IMG/VR virus record: IMGVR_UViG_2534682329_000008 | Length of the DNA stretch: 8,918 nt | DNA from: a virus | Taxonomy: Duplodnaviria > Heunggongvirae > Uroviricota > Caudoviricetes | Reading direction: 5' to 3' (one strand) | Shown: positions 1 through 6,655 of the stretch, one piece after another | Numbering within the stretch: position 1 is the stretch's first letter | Layout: the number at the start of each line of letters is the position of its first letter | Translations under genes and position numbers: made by a program | The notes under the pieces: generated by a model | The model's input: only the letters and a program-made list of their open reading frames with translations | Told to the model about the DNA's origin: nothing | Database searches by the model: none

Positions 1-336
1 CGCTGGCTGTTTTACGCGTATGACAGGATACGGAGGACAGTTGTGGCGTACGTTTTCGGTGAACGCACTCTGGCCACACTGGAGCGTCTTCTGAGCCTGC
101 TGTCGGCCTTTGAGGTCGTGGTATGGATGACGGATGGCTGGCCGCTGTATGAATCACGCCTGAAGGGAAAGCTGCACGTTATCAGCAAGCGTTACACTCA
201 GCGCATTGAGCGACATAATCTGAATCTGAGACAACATCTGGCAAGGCTGGGACGGAAGTCGCTGTCGTTCTCAAAATCGGTGGAGCTGCATGACAAGGTC
301 ATCGGGCATTATCTGAACATAAAACACTATCAGTAA
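1..336 (+). CDS. insB: IS1 transposase InsB, C-terminal part (5' end truncated by the window edge)
   Basis: Open frame from nt 1 with no in-frame start needed; the ORF-track start at 43 is only an internal GTG. Protein matches the IS1 InsB C-terminus from memory; stop TAA at 334-336. Confidence 0.85.
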
Positions 337-351
337 GTTGGAGTCACTACC
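1..351 (+). mobile_element. IS1 insertion sequence, right-hand ~350 bp (left part lies outside the window)
   Basis: Frame from position 1 translates to the InsB C-terminal region (…RWLFYAYD…VFGERT…[69 protein letters not shown]). The sequence then ends in the characteristic IS1 terminus …AAGTTGGAGTCACTACC at ~340-351. Junction position is uncertain by 1-2 bp. Confidence 0.9.
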
Positions 352-829
352 GTTTTTTCTTCCATGATAATTTAACCCGACTTGACTTTATCTCGCTTTC
401 TTCATTTGCCCTTTGTGCTATAAGTATGGCTTTTATTAATGAATATGGCTCATTCAAAGAGTCAATATTATAGACTGTATTGTCGCAAAGAGTTATAACA
501 TCAATACCGTGATTCAAAATCAATTTCAGACGTTCAATCGCTTCACCGACTTTTTCTCTTGAAAGTCTGTCCAGACTTTCAACTAACAATGTAGTTCCTG
601 GCAATATATAACCATGCTCTATAGCATCTAAAAATTCCGAAAAAGCTCCTGATTGTGCATGCTTTCCTTTGAATGCACTTAATCCTAAATCTTCATATGT
701 TATGGTATCAAGATAATAATCACTATTTACCTTTAACCATTCAGCAATAAGTCTTCTCTGTCGGTTTAATGAGTCGCCAGACATCTGACCTGGTGATGAA
801 AATCGCATATATGCTATGGCTTTTTTCAT
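352..829 (-). pseudogene. ybcK: Large serine recombinase (YbcK-like, DLP12 prophage recombinase), 3'-truncated by the IS1 insertion; only the ~160-aa N-terminal resolvase-type catalytic domain remains
   Basis: Translation MKKAIAYMRFSSPGQMSGDSLNRQRR… is a typical serine-recombinase N-terminus (catalytic Ser in the RFSS motif). The frame runs straight into the IS1 terminus and stops at 347-349 inside IS1. From memory the intact K-12 homologue is ~500 aa. The region is AT-rich. Confidence 0.8.
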
Positions 830-1014
830 GGTGACACCTGCTAACGTATGCTTTTATAAACCTTAGTGGTGGGATATAATTTTTGTTTATTTTTTATTTA
901 AAAAGACAATTAAGGTCACATTATCTTGAATATACAACAATAATCGTATTGCAATTTTCTTACGCCATAATCTTGAAAGCACAAAAGAATACATAAAAAA
1001 TAAAGACATTAACA

Positions 1015-1053
1015 AAAAGCATAAAACGAGGCTCATATAAATATAAGAGCCTC
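1015..1053 (-). terminator. Putative intrinsic terminator downstream of emrE
   Basis: Inverted repeat GAGGCTC (1028-1034) / GAGCCTC (1047-1053) with a 12-nt loop, followed on the minus strand by a U-rich tract (GUUUUAUGCUUUUU). The loop is long, so strength is uncertain. Confidence 0.4.
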
Positions 1054-1083
1054 CATATTTTAGTCGTTTAGAAACAAATTATT

Positions 1084-1416
1084 TTAATGTGGTGTGCTTC
1101 GTGACAATAAATTAATAATCAACACACCGGCACAAATCAACATCATGCCTATAATGGCTGGCAGGTCCAGCCGTTGGCCGAAAAATCCCCATGACAGTAA
1201 GCTAATCAGGACAATACCGACTCCTGACCAGATAGCATAAGCAATCCCTGTAGGAATATAAGCCAGCGTCTGAGCTAATAACCAGAATGATGCACAATAA
1301 CAAATAATTGTACCAACAGATGGCCATAACCGTGTAAAACCTTCTGAAAACTTCATTAAGGTTGTACCAATGACCTCTGCAAGTATTGCACCACCAAGAT
1401 AAATATAAGGGTTCAT
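1084..1416 (-). CDS. emrE: Small multidrug resistance (SMR) efflux transporter EmrE, 110 aa
   Basis: Translation from the internal ATG (1416) is MNPYIYLGGAILAEVIGTTLMKFSEGF…LLSRSTPH, matching E. coli EmrE from memory, with four predicted TM helices and the conserved Glu14 (…AILAEVIG…). SD AGGAAA lies ~6 nt upstream. The ORF-track start at 1470 is an unsupported N-terminal extension. Confidence 0.95.
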   Translation of the reverse strand: MNPYIYLGGAILAEVIGTTLMKFSEGFTRLWPSVGTIICYCASFWLLAQTLAYIPTGIAYAIWSGVGIVLISLLSWGFFGQRLDLPAIIGMMLICAGVLIINLLSRSTPH

Positions 1417-1483
1417 AGCATATTCTTTCCTGTTCAAACTGGAGAGAATTGTACTACAGTTTGAACTCAACTCACCTGTTTCA

Positions 1484-3496: not shown

Positions 3497-4042
3497 TCAT
3501 ATTGCCCCCAGCATGGTGGTGACCATCGCCATCAGTGGACCAGCCAAATCCGGGTCCACACGAAACATCGACACAATGCCTTCACTCATCTCCTTCAGTT
3601 TCTGGTGGCGTGGTGCGTTGAGAATGACAGCCTGTTTTGCCTCACTGAGTTCCTTTTCCATTTCAGCCAGCCGAGCCATGTAGCTATCCTGCTCAACCAG
3701 GTGGCCGCGATATTCCAGCGGTAGTACCGCCAGAATTGCCGGGGTCAGTTCACGCACGTTATTTCGGTATTTTTCAGAATCGAATTTGTTATCGAGGAAG
3801 CGGAACAGCTTCTGGCGTGCACGGCTGACATCATCAGGGAAATCGATGGTGCCGCCGCCCTGCTCCCGATACTCATTCACAATGAGTGCGGCAACAACAT
3901 CCTGATTATCTGCAGCCGACCAGGCGCGAACGGCATCACGGATTTTTTCGTGGCCTGGCGCCTGTTTTGTTTGAGAACGATTTATCACCGCAGTCGGGCT
4001 AAATCCGCTAGTCTGTTGGTATGTAAGTGGTTGCATAGTCAT
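3497..4042 (-). CDS. Hypothetical protein in the cII position, downstream of cro; YdaT-like (my assignment is tentative)
   Basis: 181-aa ORF with no recognisable similarity to lambda CII. Its position between the cro-like gene and O, together with a YdaS-type Cro, is the arrangement seen with YdaT-family proteins in Rac-like prophages. Family assignment is from memory of the architecture only. Confidence 0.55.
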   Translation of the reverse strand: MTMQPLTYQQTSGFSPTAVINRSQTKQAPGHEKIRDAVRAWSAADNQDVVAALIVNEYREQGGGTIDFPDDVSRARQKLFRFLDNKFDSEKYRNNVRELTPAILAVLPLEYRGHLVEQDSYMARLAEMEKELSEAKQAVILNAPRHQKLKEMSEGIVSMFRVDPDLAGPLMAMVTTMLGAI

Positions 4043-4066
4043 TGCCTTATCAGTTAACGCCGCAGT

Positions 4067-4294
4067 TTAGGCGGCAGAATTACTCGCGTTAAACAATGGT
4101 GCGAGGTCGGGACGAATATCTGCTGGTTTAATCTTTCCACCAGTGGCTGAGACAATTTTCATTACATAGCGGGCATCAATTCCGCCACCGTGTAGCCAAC
4201 GCCAAACTGTGGGTTGGGCTACACCGCATAGATCTGCCAGTCGTTTTTGACTACCTGTAATACTGATTGCGAGTTGAATGGTTTGATTTGTCAT
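4067..4294 (-). CDS. Cro-like HTH repressor (YdaS/Cro family), 75 aa
   Basis: HTH motif …GSQKRLADLCGVAQPTVWRWLHGG… and a C-terminal …GGKIKPADIRPDL… typical of the YdaS/Cro-like family. Divergent from the cI-like gene across an operator region. Start taken at ATG 4294, with SD AGGA 8 nt upstream on the minus strand; the track start at 4300 is a TTG two codons upstream. Confidence 0.75.
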   Translation of the reverse strand: MTNQTIQLAISITGSQKRLADLCGVAQPTVWRWLHGGGIDARYVMKIVSATGGKIKPADIRPDLAPLFNASNSAA

Positions 4295-4300
4295 TATCAA

Positions 4301-4404
4301 TTCCTATTGGTATTGCAATGAATAAATAATAGCAATACGTATTAATCCAAGCAATAGCAAAACGTGTTTTGACCATCAATACGCAAGCGTATAAATTAAA
4401 ACTT
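4301..4404. promoter_or_regulatory. OR-like divergent promoter/operator region: PR-like promoter (minus strand) for cro and PRM-like promoter (plus strand) giving a near-leaderless cI mRNA
   Basis: Minus strand: -35 TTGCTT (4349-4354), 17-bp spacer, -10 TATTAT (4326-4331). Plus strand: -35 TTGACC (4369-4374), 15-16 bp spacer, -10 TATAAA/ATAAAT (4390-4396), placing +1 within a few nt of the cI ATG at 4405, which has no SD. The 8-mer AATAGCAA occurs at 4328-4335 and 4353-4360, and ATTGCAAT at 4312-4319. Confidence 0.55.
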
Positions 4405-5097
4405 ATGAAAAAAGAAACTCTTGCTGATCGCTTAAACCTAGCGATGGAACAATCTGGAATGTCTCAAGGCGCTCTTGCAAAGGCGTCTGGCGTAGCTCAA
4501 CCCACAATCTGGAGACTGACAAGCGGCAACGCTCGCGGCTCAACAAAAATTGTTGAAATAGCTAATGCATTGGGTGTTCGAACAGAATGGCTCTCATCAG
4601 GCATAGGCCCGATGAGAAATGACGGTCAACAATCAGGGAAGCCTGCTGTCAGCCATTCAAAATACTTCAAGATTGACGTTCTTGATATAGAAGTGAGTGC
4701 CGGGCCGGGAGTCATCAACCGTGAGTTTGTAGAAGTTCTACGCTCGGTTGAGTACTCGTTTGACGATGCTCGTCACATGTTCGATGGTAGGAAGGCAGAA
4801 AATATCCGCATCATTAACGTACGCGGTGACAGCATGTCAGGAACGATCGAACCAGGTGATCTGCTGTTCGTTGATATCACGGTTAAATCTTTCGACGGTG
4901 ATGGTATCTATGCGTTTCTGTATGACGACACCGCCCATGTAAAGCGCCTGCAAATGATGAAGGATAAGCTACTGGTTATCTCTGATAACAAGAGCTACTC
5001 ACCGTGGGACCCGATCGAGAAAGACGAGATGAACCGGGTATTCATATTCGGTAAGGTTATTGGGAGCATGCCGCAGACGTACAGAAAACACGGATAA
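4405..5097 (+). CDS. cI: cI-like prophage repressor: N-terminal XRE-type HTH plus C-terminal LexA/S24 autopeptidase domain
   Basis: HTH …SQGALAKASGVAQPTIWRLTSG…; a candidate Ala-Gly cleavage site in the linker (EVSAGPG); S24 catalytic motifs …VRGDSMSGTIEPGDLLFVD… (Ser nucleophile) and …AHVKRL… (Lys). Start placed at ATG 4405 (MKKETLADRL…); the track start at 4369 is a TTG that coincides with the promoter -35. Confidence 0.85.
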   Translation: MKKETLADRLNLAMEQSGMSQGALAKASGVAQPTIWRLTSGNARGSTKIVEIANALGVRTEWLSSGIGPMRNDGQQSGKPAVSHSKYFKIDVLDIEVSAGPGVINREFVEVLRSVEYSFDDARHMFDGRKAENIRIINVRGDSMSGTIEPGDLLFVDITVKSFDGDGIYAFLYDDTAHVKRLQMMKDKLLVISDNKSYSPWDPIEKDEMNRVFIFGKVIGSMPQTYRKHG

Positions 5098-5179
5098 TCA
5101 GCCGCGTGTTGATGAGGCTTTTGGGTAATACGCTGAAGAAAATACCTTATAAAAAATAACATTACGGGAAAGGCAAAAA

Positions 5180-5443
5180 ATGAGTAATAAAACACTTGTT
5201 AAAAAATCAAATAACTGTGTCGATGCATACGCCGACGCGTTTGGCTACTCTTCGTTTGGTGACGGCTCTCAGCGCCTAGGTTCAATTTCTTTTTTTCATA
5301 ATGTAACTGAATGGCCTGTTGATGAAAGTGACGATGTTGAGAACATAAAGTACAACATTGCAACCATTAGAATGCCCGAAGAATTGATGCTTAAATTGGC
5401 TGACTTCATTCGCGACCAGCATGACAAAGCTAAAACAAACTAA
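5180..5443 (+). CDS. Hypothetical 87-aa protein, first gene of an immunity-region accessory cassette (moron)
   Basis: ATG with SD (GGGAAAGG) ~6 nt upstream. Markedly AT-rich relative to flanking phage genes. Co-oriented downstream of cI. No family recognised; the C-terminal segment …IATIRMPEELMLKLADFIRDQ… has a beta-strand/helix pattern faintly reminiscent of a ribbon-helix-helix, but is too short to call. Confidence 0.5.
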   Translation: MSNKTLVKKSNNCVDAYADAFGYSSFGDGSQRLGSISFFHNVTEWPVDESDDVENIKYNIATIRMPEELMLKLADFIRDQHDKAKTN

Positions 5444-5455
5444 TCGTAATTAATT

Positions 5456-5899
5456 ATGAAACACGATTATTACGAAGCTCCAAACCTAAATGATAAAATT
5501 GCAAAGGCGGCAAAATCATTTTGTTTGCACTCCAGTGCGTCTTCCCAGCTAGCAGGTATATCTGGAAAAAGATGGGACATGCTACAATCAAGTGGTAGCA
5601 GTGGGTCTGGGAGTGATAACATGCCTGAAAAAGTTGCAAAACTGGAGTCCGATGTTGCTCATATCAAACGAGACGTTGATGAACTTAAAACAGACGTTAA
5701 AGCTATCGACAAAAATATGATAACTATTCTTGCACGTCTGGACTCTATAAAAGAATCCTTAACAAACAAGCCATCAAGTGATGCTGTCGATAGAAAGATT
5801 TCAGACGCAAAGCTTGCGGTATTGCTTGGTGTTCCAGCAATCATCGCTGCAGGAACAGGACTTTATAAGCTATCAATGTACTTTTTCTTTAGTGCTTAA
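5456..5899 (+). CDS. Hypothetical coiled-coil protein with a C-terminal transmembrane anchor (XhlA-like architecture), 147 aa (or 92 aa if translated from the internal ATG at 5621)
   Basis: Heptad-like charged coiled-coil segment (KLESDVAHIKRDVDELKTDVKAIDKNMITILARLDSIKESL), then the hydrophobic stretch LAVLLGVPAIIAAGTGLYKL near the C-terminus. The first ATG at 5456 has no SD, whereas the internal in-frame ATG at 5621 is preceded by GGAG at 5609-5612. AT-rich. Confidence 0.55.
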   Translation: MKHDYYEAPNLNDKIAKAAKSFCLHSSASSQLAGISGKRWDMLQSSGSSGSGSDNMPEKVAKLESDVAHIKRDVDELKTDVKAIDKNMITILARLDSIKESLTNKPSSDAVDRKISDAKLAVLLGVPAIIAAGTGLYKLSMYFFFSA

Positions 5900-5974
5900 G
5901 AAAATGCTCGCACCCTTGCATTAGGTAAAGCGATTTTTCATTCCCCATTACCCTCGCTCTTAACCAATCATCTA

Positions 5975-6003
5975 AACCCGGCCACCGTGCCGGGTTTTCT
6001 TTT
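5975..6003 (+). terminator. Rho-independent terminator ending the cI-orf87-orf147 operon (t_imm analogue)
   Basis: Stem CCCGGC (5977-5982) / GCCGGG (5989-5994), 6-nt loop, followed by TTTTCTTTT (5995-6003). Confidence 0.75.
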
Positions 6004-6089
6004 GCCCTCCCCTCATCACACACCGTTCAAAAAACCACCACGACCTCACTTCAGTTATCGCTATGCGATGCAAGTCACAAAATTAATTC

Positions 6090-6178
6090 TTTTTGCTATC
6101 AAACATTTAATATCAAAACACATCAACTAATAGCAACAAGTATTGATATCACCAATAGCAATAGCTATTATCACCATA
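6090..6178 (+). promoter_or_regulatory. OL/PL-like operator-promoter driving the rightward (plus-strand) early operon towards gam-bet-exo
   Basis: -35 TTGATA (6143-6148), 17-bp spacer, -10 TATTAT (6166-6171). The same AATAGCAA 8-mer as in the OR region occurs at 6129-6136 and 6154-6161, the latter inside the spacer, with a 7/8 inverted copy TTGCTATC at 6093-6100. Confidence 0.55.
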
Positions 6179-6364
6179 TCGCAACAACACAACGATACGG
6201 CAACCACCTGATTCACCGTTGCGATGACCGTTTAGATCCGCAGCTTGAATTTCAGCAGGCTTCGGGGAGTGCGAGGGGTGAAACGGACGCGTGAACGTCG
6301 GTGTGACCAGCTGAAATTAACTCAACATTTCATACCTCAGTCGCTTCAACGAGGCGGCTTAGTT

Positions 6365-6655
6365 ATGACAACCGGCGGCCATCCACCGCCTGAATATGCG
6401 CAGAAGTCTCTATATGTTCAGCAGCCCAGCTTACGGGCAGGAGTTTTTATGGTTCATCAACATTACGGAACGCAGACCGTTAATCGCGGTGCGGTCATGC
6501 CAGGCATGCTGGTCAAACACAAAGATGGTACCTGGACTGCATCAGCTAATTTACGCGGACGGCTTTATCTGCATCGCGGCATCGAGCGCACTTATACCCG
6601 TGATTTGCTCGTGGAAGTTTTTCTCGACGGACGCGGTAACGGCCTCAATCACTAA
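6365..6655 (+). CDS. Hypothetical 96-aa protein between PL and gam (kil/cIII position)
   Basis: ATG 6365 with SD GAGG ~10 nt upstream; stop TAA 6653-6655. No similarity to lambda N, cIII or Kil that I can recognise. The track ORF from a TTG at 6245 is a longer alternative with no SD. Confidence 0.4.

Follow-up and report, generated by a model that had tools for sequence, protein, structure and literature searches.

What are two small genes doing directly behind the repressor gene of a DLP12/lambda-like Escherichia coli prophage, in the place where lambda carries rexA and rexB? The question is raised by an 8,918-nucleotide stretch of a Caudoviricetes virus (IMG/VR record IMGVR_UViG_2534682329_000008), hereafter called the window, in which two open reading frames (ORFs), ORF1 and ORF2, follow the cI-type repressor gene. 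RefSeq annotates both products as hypothetical proteins, and they carry the same label in the best genome match, E. coli 2014C-3307, which is 99.9% identical to the window across 4369-6250. The reading favoured here, to which a probability of about one half is given, is that the pair forms an anti-phage system expressed in the lysogen, in which a soluble protein that senses or regulates and a holin-like effector at the membrane protect against superinfecting phages. The support is strong but circumstantial, and its strongest part is positional. The reading is suggested because the cassette is exactly allelic with BstA and PDC-M11, because a relative adjoins rexAB, because other relatives occupy the immI/sieA interval of P22, and because a variable partner is combined with a conserved membrane protein.

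The cargo slot behind cI

The features of the slot and of the cassette (aa, amino acids) are the following.

4369-5097, plus strand: cI-type repressor gene with HTH_3 and Peptidase_S24 domains
5098-5973, plus strand: exchangeable cargo segment, delimited by BLASTN against L118, L120 and L121
5098-5179, plus strand: cI-ORF1 spacer without a terminator; ribosome-binding region of ORF1, GGGAAAGG, at about 5166-5173
5180-5443, plus strand: ORF1, putative soluble partner protein of 87 aa, phrog_4231 (function unknown)
5456-5899, plus strand: ORF2 long form, putative tail-anchored coiled-coil membrane protein of 147 aa, phrog_3556 (function unknown); this is the form annotated in RefSeq
5456-5620, plus strand: N-terminal adaptor peptide of ORF2 (YYEAPNL..K motif, helix 10-26) and disordered Ser/Gly linker
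5609-5623, plus strand: internal Shine-Dalgarno sequence GGGAG (5609-5613), 7-nt spacer and in-frame ATG of Met56 (5621-5623)
5621-5899, plus strand: conserved core of ORF2 and predicted short isoform of 92 aa, XhlA-like, with coiled coil and C-terminal membrane anchor
5807-5863, plus strand: predicted transmembrane (TM) helix, residues 118-136, AKLAVLLGVPAIIAAGTGL, followed by an 11-residue tail
5974-6003, plus strand: intrinsic terminator closing the cI operon (hairpin 5974-5997, then a T tract), with a 9-bp stem containing 6 G-C pairs
6129-6171, plus strand: left operator and promoter (OL/PL), with AATAGCAA at 6129 and 6154 and a promoter-like site at 6143-6171 directed away from the cassette

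BLASTN comparison of four E. coli prophages with the same flanks shows that homology ends at the cI stop codon (5096) and restarts at 5971-5974, at the foot of the terminator. The interval between these points holds the ORF1-ORF2 cassette in one prophage (L119), a BstA protein of 303 aa in another (L121; PADLOC 7e-122), the candidate system PDC-M11A and PDC-M11B in the third (L118; PADLOC 2.9e-133 and 6.8e-52) and only a spacer of about 119 bp in the fourth (L120). The cI stop codon and the terminator thus mark out a cargo hotspot with precise boundaries, and the cargo of the window, 5098-5973, is a promoter-less segment inserted between the cI stop and the terminator of the cI operon. Since the slot alternates between the cassette, BstA, PDC-M11 and nothing, the life cycle of the phage does not depend on its cargo. 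For BstA, a prophage protein, a role in abortive infection is established by experiment, and Owen et al. (2021) placed bstA and rexAB in a common repressor-linked hotspot, with a conserved position behind the repressor in synteny with lambda rexAB (PMC8585504).

The terminator is kept in every slot variant. Its hairpin has a folding energy of -15.1 kcal/mol (z = -3.7), and none of 200 shuffled sequences folds equally well. The plus strand of the cI-ORF1 spacer contains no terminator-like, hairpin or promoter-like site and folds as expected by chance (z = +0.1). Because the cargo lacks a promoter of its own and the terminator is common to all cargo types, all cargo is presumably expressed from the repressor promoter or promoters in the lysogen, and from this architecture the cassette, too, is presumably transcribed together with the repressor. 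The operator half-site octamer AATAGCAA occurs four times in the window, always at the right operator (OR; 4328 and 4353) or at OL/PL (6129 and 6154), against 0.46 copies expected from shuffling (0 of 200 shuffles reach four).

The original prediction, made from the letters of the window, had described two co-oriented ORFs between the cI stop (5097) and a strong terminator ahead of OL/PL, in the topology of rexAB. All of these elements lie where they were placed, and the positions of ORFs, terminator and operator bear out the topology. The cassette had been drawn as 5098-6003, of which 5098-5973 is cargo; the slot comparison assigns the terminator to the conserved flank. The two genes had also been described as more AT-rich than the flanking phage genes, and this agrees with the GC content (0.39-0.40 for ORF1 and ORF2, 0.465 for cI and 0.50-0.53 for kil, gam, bet and exo) and with GC at third codon positions (0.39 and 0.31 for the two ORFs against 0.49-0.62 for the flanking phage genes). 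Recent horizontal acquisition had been concluded from this composition; modular exchange among phages is shown, but not its recency.

Such exchange is visible at the left edge of the slot, where two repressor/cro immunity types combine freely with two cassette alleles (window 4369-5097 compared with L003 3233-3916 and similar loci). One type has a cI 100% identical to that of the window, the other a cI of 82% identity with a cro of only 46%, and the alleles have ORF1 proteins about 100% and about 79% identical to that of the window. The free combinations show recombination at the boundary between cI and cargo. The PL-kil flank (6004-6450) is present in 2,238 of 5,426 complete E. coli genomes and the cassette in 205 of them (about 4%).

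A profile search with the ORF2 alignment retrieved 339 proteins at E <= 0.001, and relatives occur in the following positions. They are found directly behind ten different cI-type repressors (seven with HTH and S24 domains, three with HTH only), behind another E. coli cI (L046), behind the 186-type CI of a Vibrio P2-like element and at one end of a prophage in Salmonella. A lambda-like phage of Mannheimia has, beside cI, a gene for a 161-aa protein with a single TM segment and an XhlA domain, for which a haemolysin role was considered possible (PMC4553209). The P22-like Salmonella phage UPF_BP1 has DNA of 84.5% identity with window positions 5152-5628 directly behind mnt, in immI between genes 16 and 9, with ORF1 overlapping the end of mnt, and further P22-like viral contigs, including Serratia-type ones, have the same mnt/immI layout. 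In P22 itself the interval between genes 16 and 9 holds sieA, which is present in 22 of 66 sequenced P22-like phages (PMC10883804).

Tail regions are a further location. Some homologues of ORF1 lie among tail genes, on the strand opposite to these (L036, L038), and relatives of the cassette are found in islands within the tail regions of Pantoea, Yersinia and Proteus prophages and of one unassigned Logan contig, as well as in several siphovirus prophages between the tail chaperone and tape-measure genes. In the Proteus island the relative adjoins RexA and RexB (PADLOC 1.2e-87 and 2.5e-43).

Two of these loci hold further genes. The Proteus island (L122 1562-5249), in the interval between tail chaperone and tape-measure genes, contains RexA, RexB, a 177-aa ORF, a pair of a 133-aa partner and a 102-aa XhlA-like protein, and a 289-aa ORF; its XhlA-like protein, P0105, is indexed in 264 blocks of the collection. 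The P2-like element of Vibrio parahaemolyticus (L124 3069-7875) has the 186-type CI, a 99-aa partner, a 95-aa XhlA-like protein with Leu instead of Met as the junction residue, a 719-aa HATPase_c_3 protein with weak PADLOC matches to type II restriction endonucleases, and a 458-aa ORF, facing a DNA methylase. It is probably a compound defence locus behind the repressor.

Two genes with exchangeable parts

ORF1 and ORF2 match families of phage proteins (PHROG 1e-54 to phrog_4231 and 1.7e-58 to phrog_3556), and homologues of the cassette are found across Enterobacterales. Between the two E. coli alleles, which are about 80% identical in DNA, the ratio of nonsynonymous to synonymous substitution rates (dN/dS) is 0.08 in ORF1; the C-terminal part of ORF2 has a ratio of 0.11 and its N-terminal part one of 0.51. 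The low ratios, the PHROG matches and the conserved gene order of the homologues together indicate that both are genuine genes. Neither protein gives anything significant in Pfam, NCBIfam or PADLOC, ORF2 producing only coiled-coil noise in Pfam and PADLOC; a sequence search of PDB likewise yielded nothing but coiled-coil noise. The original prediction, which had called for profile searches and structure models, had recognised neither protein as a characterised family. Single-protein models were made, and with respect to these three libraries the statement stands; it does not extend to the coiled-coil head of ORF2, which is homologous to a Gram-negative XhlA-like group. The coiled coil and C-terminal membrane anchor foreseen for the second product agree with the AlphaFold helices and the Kyte-Doolittle profile.

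The ORF1 family is small, with 8 clusters at 50% identity among 1.84 billion proteins. Its model shows a beta-sheet packed on a C-terminal helix (pLDDT, the per-residue model confidence, 78), and only weak fold neighbours were found. In IMG/VR a gene for a coiled-coil and TM protein lies directly downstream in all 36 loci with an ORF1 homologue. ORF2 starts 12 nt past the ORF1 stop codon in the window, and the homologous gene pairs overlap or lie -26 to +17 nt apart.

The homologues of ORF2 share a common plan, with a variable N-terminal peptide, a Ser/Gly-rich linker, a near-universal Met, a coiled coil, a KPSS break, a TM helix and about 11 further residues; the part conserved among approximately 65 homologues is the 92-aa core. 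In the AlphaFold model of ORF2 a helix (10-26) is followed by disorder (27-55) and two further helices (56-103 and 108-146), with pLDDT below 50 for residues 24-53. The coiled coil opens with M-x-E-x-R-V-A-K-L-E-S-D-V. The only hydrophobic segment lies within the last helix, where residues 118-136 form the most hydrophobic 19-residue stretch (Kyte-Doolittle mean 1.8); in the alignment of this segment V126, P127 and T134 never vary, and G125 and G133 hardly do. ORF2 lacks a signal peptide, and its sole TM segment comes after about 117 hydrophilic residues, so that the protein should be tail-anchored in the inner membrane with its bulk in the cytoplasm.

The two ends of ORF2 behave as separate modules. 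Relatives with other N-terminal peptides are preceded by genes of other families, at least eight in number and including types of about 90 aa, of about 140 aa and with a Zn-ribbon, and each upstream partner family goes with its own class of N-terminal peptide on the membrane protein. Conversely, ORF1 with a YY/YF-type peptide is joined to at least five different coiled-coil/TM tails. The homology to UPF_BP1 begins at 5152, 28 bp 5' of ORF1, and ends at 5628, within 8 nt of the junction ATG; the mobile unit therefore carries a ribosome-binding site but no promoter, and the adaptor peptide stays with ORF1 when the membrane module is swapped. This covariation would be most simply explained by binding of the partner to the N-terminal peptide that the long ORF2 isoform carries. 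The partner proteins of the related cassettes have no match in Pfam, NCBIfam or PADLOC. Homology of ORF1 to the partners of about 90 aa (P2 and P9 groups) was considered and is not established, the hhalign alignment being collinear but with E = 0.015 and a probability of 3%.

Some loci deviate from the common plan. P0005, an E. coli protein of 134 aa, consists of the first approximately 57 residues of ORF1 fused in frame to the C-terminal coiled-coil/TM part of a UPF_BP1-type ORF2 and is apparently a deletion derivative of the cassette. Several Pantoea/Erwinia loci (L054 3528-4267; L057; L053 and L056 around 3974-4276) have tandem XhlA-like paralogues, and the gene upstream of the ORF2 homologue encodes a coiled-coil and TM protein (MEMRVSKLEADV...) instead of a soluble partner.

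The near-universal Met at the junction of the modules appears to be a start codon. In 28 of 29 variants, which represent about 15 N-terminal classes, GGAG or GAGG is found at -18 to -5 relative to the start codon of the junction, while such a motif occurs in 5% of 14-nt windows in neighbouring genes. It is usually GGAGG, located 5-9 nt before the ATG, and one E. coli allele has GTG as start codon. Of the Gly codons of the linker, 52% are GGA at residues -5 to -3; at residues -14 to -6 GGT prevails and GGA accounts for 15%. This position-specific choice argues for selection at the RNA level. The window allele has the second Gly replaced by Ser and nonetheless keeps GGGAG. Gene callers often choose the Met56 start (P0020, P0024). 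The start at 5456 is supported as well, as the N-terminal frame is open in all variants, is coupled to the upstream stop and has a dN/dS below 1. Two ORF2 products, of 147 and 92 aa, are thus the likeliest reading of the sequence. The original prediction had offered the two lengths as alternatives; both starts are present, and with a conserved internal Shine-Dalgarno sequence and ATG both products are likely made.

A second in-frame start with its own correctly spaced Shine-Dalgarno sequence, conserved in relatives, recalls sieB/esc of P22 and S107/S105 of lambda, membrane-acting phage proteins in which one frame with two starts gives a long and a short product. ORF2 has no homology to either. 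Its starts are separated by 55 codons, the additional segment is a peptide specific to the partner, and its isoforms are predicted ones.

The core of ORF2 (residues 56-147) fits the plan of XhlA, which is a core of about 70-100 aa that has a coiled coil at the N terminus and one TM segment at the C terminus. By hhalign, the coiled-coil head of ORF2 matches a Gram-negative XhlA-like group of proteins of about 90-105 aa with a probability of 98.5% (E = 2.4e-15), over 32 columns only. Members of that group match Pfam PF10779 at 1e-5 to 1e-6 (about 23-25 bits), under the gathering score of 34.7, and the group is weakly similar to gp24.1 of phage SPP1, a homologue of XhlA (hhalign E = 4.5e-4, probability 33%). 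On this sequence evidence ORF2 is best described as XhlA-like in architecture and transitively related, and not as a demonstrated member of the XhlA family. XhlA and SPP1 gp24.1 are holin components with a C-terminal TM segment that are harmless alone and lethal with a partner holin (PMC6316719; PMC5589764), and gene 24.1 contains an internal start, in frame and with a ribosome-binding site of its own (PMC6316719). XhlA of PBSX, gp24.1 and ORF2 are alike in being small, with a coiled coil followed by one C-terminal TM segment, and gp24.1 and ORF2 share the internal start. They differ in that XhlA and gp24.1 belong to lysis cassettes whereas ORF2 sits in the repressor operon. ORF2 also has, unlike XhlA, an N-terminal adaptor and a Gly-rich linker, and its obligate neighbour is the upstream partner, not an XhlB-type holin and an endolysin.

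Function and alternative readings

If the cassette is an anti-phage system, ORF1 would be a small soluble protein of a beta-sheet and a helix, translationally coupled to ORF2, that docks on the N-terminal peptide of ORF2 and acts as sensor or regulator. ORF2 would be the membrane effector, with a cytoplasmic coiled coil and an XhlA-like core. On triggering, it would compromise the inner membrane, either alone or with the holin of the invading phage, as XhlA and SPP1 gp24.1 do with their partner holins, and the infection would be aborted or lysis would be premature. The ratio of the long, partner-bound isoform to the short, adaptor-less one may set the threshold, as in holin/antiholin pairs. 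The original prediction had already suggested that the pair is a moron expressed in the lysogen with an anti-phage role, and the circumstantial support for this suggestion is now strong.

A wider and decidedly speculative extension of this proposal is a large modular class of prophage immune systems. Interchangeable sensors, of at least eight families, would plug via cognate docking peptides into a holin-derived XhlA-like effector; isoform ratio and sensor occupancy would together form the trigger, and firing would cause premature permeabilisation or lysis, possibly by co-opting the invader's holin.

RexA/RexB of lambda and the cassette both lie on the cI strand between cI and the terminator ahead of OL/PL, and both combine one soluble with one inner-membrane gene product. 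There is no sequence relationship. ORF1 has no match to RexA (PF15969, PADLOC RexA), while the true RexA of the Proteus locus scores 1.2e-87 in the same library, and ORF2, with its single hydrophobic segment, gives only coiled-coil noise in Pfam and PADLOC and no match to the multi-pass RexB (PF15968). RexA homologues have about 270 aa (267 in the Proteus locus) against the 87 aa of ORF1, and RexB is channel-like and passes the membrane several times, in contrast to the long coiled coil and single C-terminal TM helix of ORF2. BstA shares with the cassette exactly the same slot from cI to terminator, with identical flanks (L121), and is presumably driven by the repressor promoter (PMC8585504). 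It differs in being a single protein, of 303 aa in L121, reported at phage DNA replication sites (PMC8585504), and the PADLOC profile of BstA matches neither ORF1 nor ORF2. The Gifsy protein GiPD474 was considered and rejected, as its ATPase domain is present in neither ORF1 nor ORF2. By these comparisons the cassette is best regarded as repressor-linked prophage cargo with a distinct modular architecture, which would work like RexAB in position and in its soluble-plus-membrane layout.

Several observations weigh against an anti-phage role or against parts of the proposed mechanism. Location is not proof; cargo other than defence genes is found in the cI-PL slot and at moron sites, too. In PADLOC-DB v2.0.0 ORF1 has no match and ORF2 only coiled-coil matches at E >= 0.004 (PbeC, LmuB, JetC), and the literature yielded no functional study, phenotype, expression or interaction data for any member of the family. 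The small partners bear no recognisable enzymatic or ligand-binding signature, and the roles of sensor and effector could be reversed. The link to holin components is not supported by direct comparison, since ORF2 scores 14.1 bits against PF10779 (E = 0.053), under the gathering threshold of 34.7 bits, and the hhalign comparison of its core with SPP1 gp24.1 is not significant (E = 0.028). Finally, the Gly-rich linker could be conserved for protein reasons and not for an internal start, although the position-specific use of GGA argues otherwise.

The alternative that survives best, itself doubtful, is superinfection exclusion at DNA entry, in which ORF2 in the inner membrane would block the ejection or tape-measure conduit like P22 SieA and HK97 gp15, with ORF1 as an accessory or stabilising protein. 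The P22-like cassette between genes 16 and 9, beside mnt, is in the very place of sieA in P22, and the siphovirus copies between tail chaperone and tape-measure genes are in the same kind of site as the HK97 gp15 moron. The likeness to SieA and gp15 thus lies in common niches (immI beside mnt and tail-gene moron sites) and in the type of protein, which is small, located in the inner membrane and expressed from the prophage. SieA and gp15 are single genes, however, and ORF2 always comes with a partner and should be tail-anchored, with most of its length in the cytoplasm. SieA is a protein of the inner membrane, of 162-164 aa, with 3-4 TM helices and the motif FxRYPxEAxxFNK (PMC10883804); ORF2 has one predicted TM segment and lacks the motif, and membership in the SieA family is rejected. 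Only about 11 residues of ORF2 would face the periplasm, and the diverse cytoplasmic partners and the dual start are more easily explained by intracellular sensing than by a block at entry.

It is unlikely that the cassette serves the prophage itself, either as a toxin-antitoxin-like addiction pair with ORF2 as toxin and ORF1 as neutraliser, or as a holin accessory, already placed in the membrane, that tunes the timing of the prophage's own lysis once it is induced. A tightly coupled pair of small genes with a potentially membrane-toxic product does resemble a toxin-antitoxin system, XhlA-family proteins are components of lysis cassettes in phages of Gram-positive bacteria, and the dual-start motif is typical of holin timing control. 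Nevertheless, neither the cassette of the window nor any related locus examined is in a lysis cassette; all are in repressor, immI or moron positions, on the lysogeny side. Induction shuts off transcription from the repressor promoter, so that a lysis factor expressed from it would be badly timed, and alternation of the slot content with BstA, PDC-M11 or nothing does not fit such a role.

Lysogenic conversion unrelated to phages, with the cassette as a membrane stress-tolerance factor or a virulence factor ('haemolysin XhlA'), is very improbable. UniRef and some papers do name relatives 'Hemolysin XhlA', and the cassette is frequent in genomes of the Shiga toxin-producing E. coli (STEC) type, such as O103, and in ECO26_0580. 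Lambdoid morons such as bor and lom act on host fitness. The label, however, apparently came with the name of an unrelated Xenorhabdus protein; the Pfam family corresponds to the small lysis protein of phages. ORF2 has no signal peptide and almost no extracytoplasmic part, and the covariation with the partners and the allelism with defence genes would be left unexplained. That the ORFs are chance open frames in AT-rich spacer DNA, as the composition and the lack of known domains could suggest, is refuted by the conservation data, with dN/dS of 0.08 and 0.11, PHROG matches of 1e-54 and 1e-58 and conserved order and coupling in many genera.

The rest of the window and wider meaning

The gene order of the window is listed below, and an Rfam scan of its whole length found no family.

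Minus strand: replication genes P and O, a YdaT-domain gene (in the cII position) and a cro-like gene
4067-4300, minus strand: the cro-like gene, divergent from cI
Plus strand: cI-type repressor gene, ORF1, ORF2, terminator, OL/PL, kil, gam, bet and exo

The lambda cII position is occupied by a gene for a 181-aa protein (3497-4042, minus strand), annotated in RefSeq as 'toxin YdaT domain-containing protein' in a near-identical genome. Between PL and kil (6172-6448) there is no ORF for an N-like antiterminator, the annotated kil equivalent being 6449-6655, and the leader of about 280 nt has no Rfam match and does not fold unusually (z = -1.07). At the left end of the window (1-1470), past ren and P, there is another AT-rich patch of cargo (GC 0.31-0.40). 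Its translations suggest an IS1 fragment at 43-336, a truncated, ybcK-like gene of the resolvase family on the minus strand (347-829) and, on the same strand, emrE (about 1084-1416). The closest relative, L002, has at this position a NACHT-domain protein, without a PADLOC match, and a protein with a P22AR C-terminal domain instead.

The hotspot between the cI stop codon and the terminator can be mined for further systems. If the anti-phage reading of ORF1 and ORF2 is true, the cassette would represent a new family of prophage anti-phage systems, present in about 4% of complete E. coli genomes, STEC lineages included, and also in Salmonella, Serratia, Pantoea, Proteus, Yersinia and Vibrio phages, which current defence finders miss. 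It would offer a compact model for the coupling of sensing to membrane killing, a question that RexAB still poses after 60 years, and it would provide an evolutionary link between the lysis machinery of phages, in the form of XhlA-type holin components, and anti-phage immunity.

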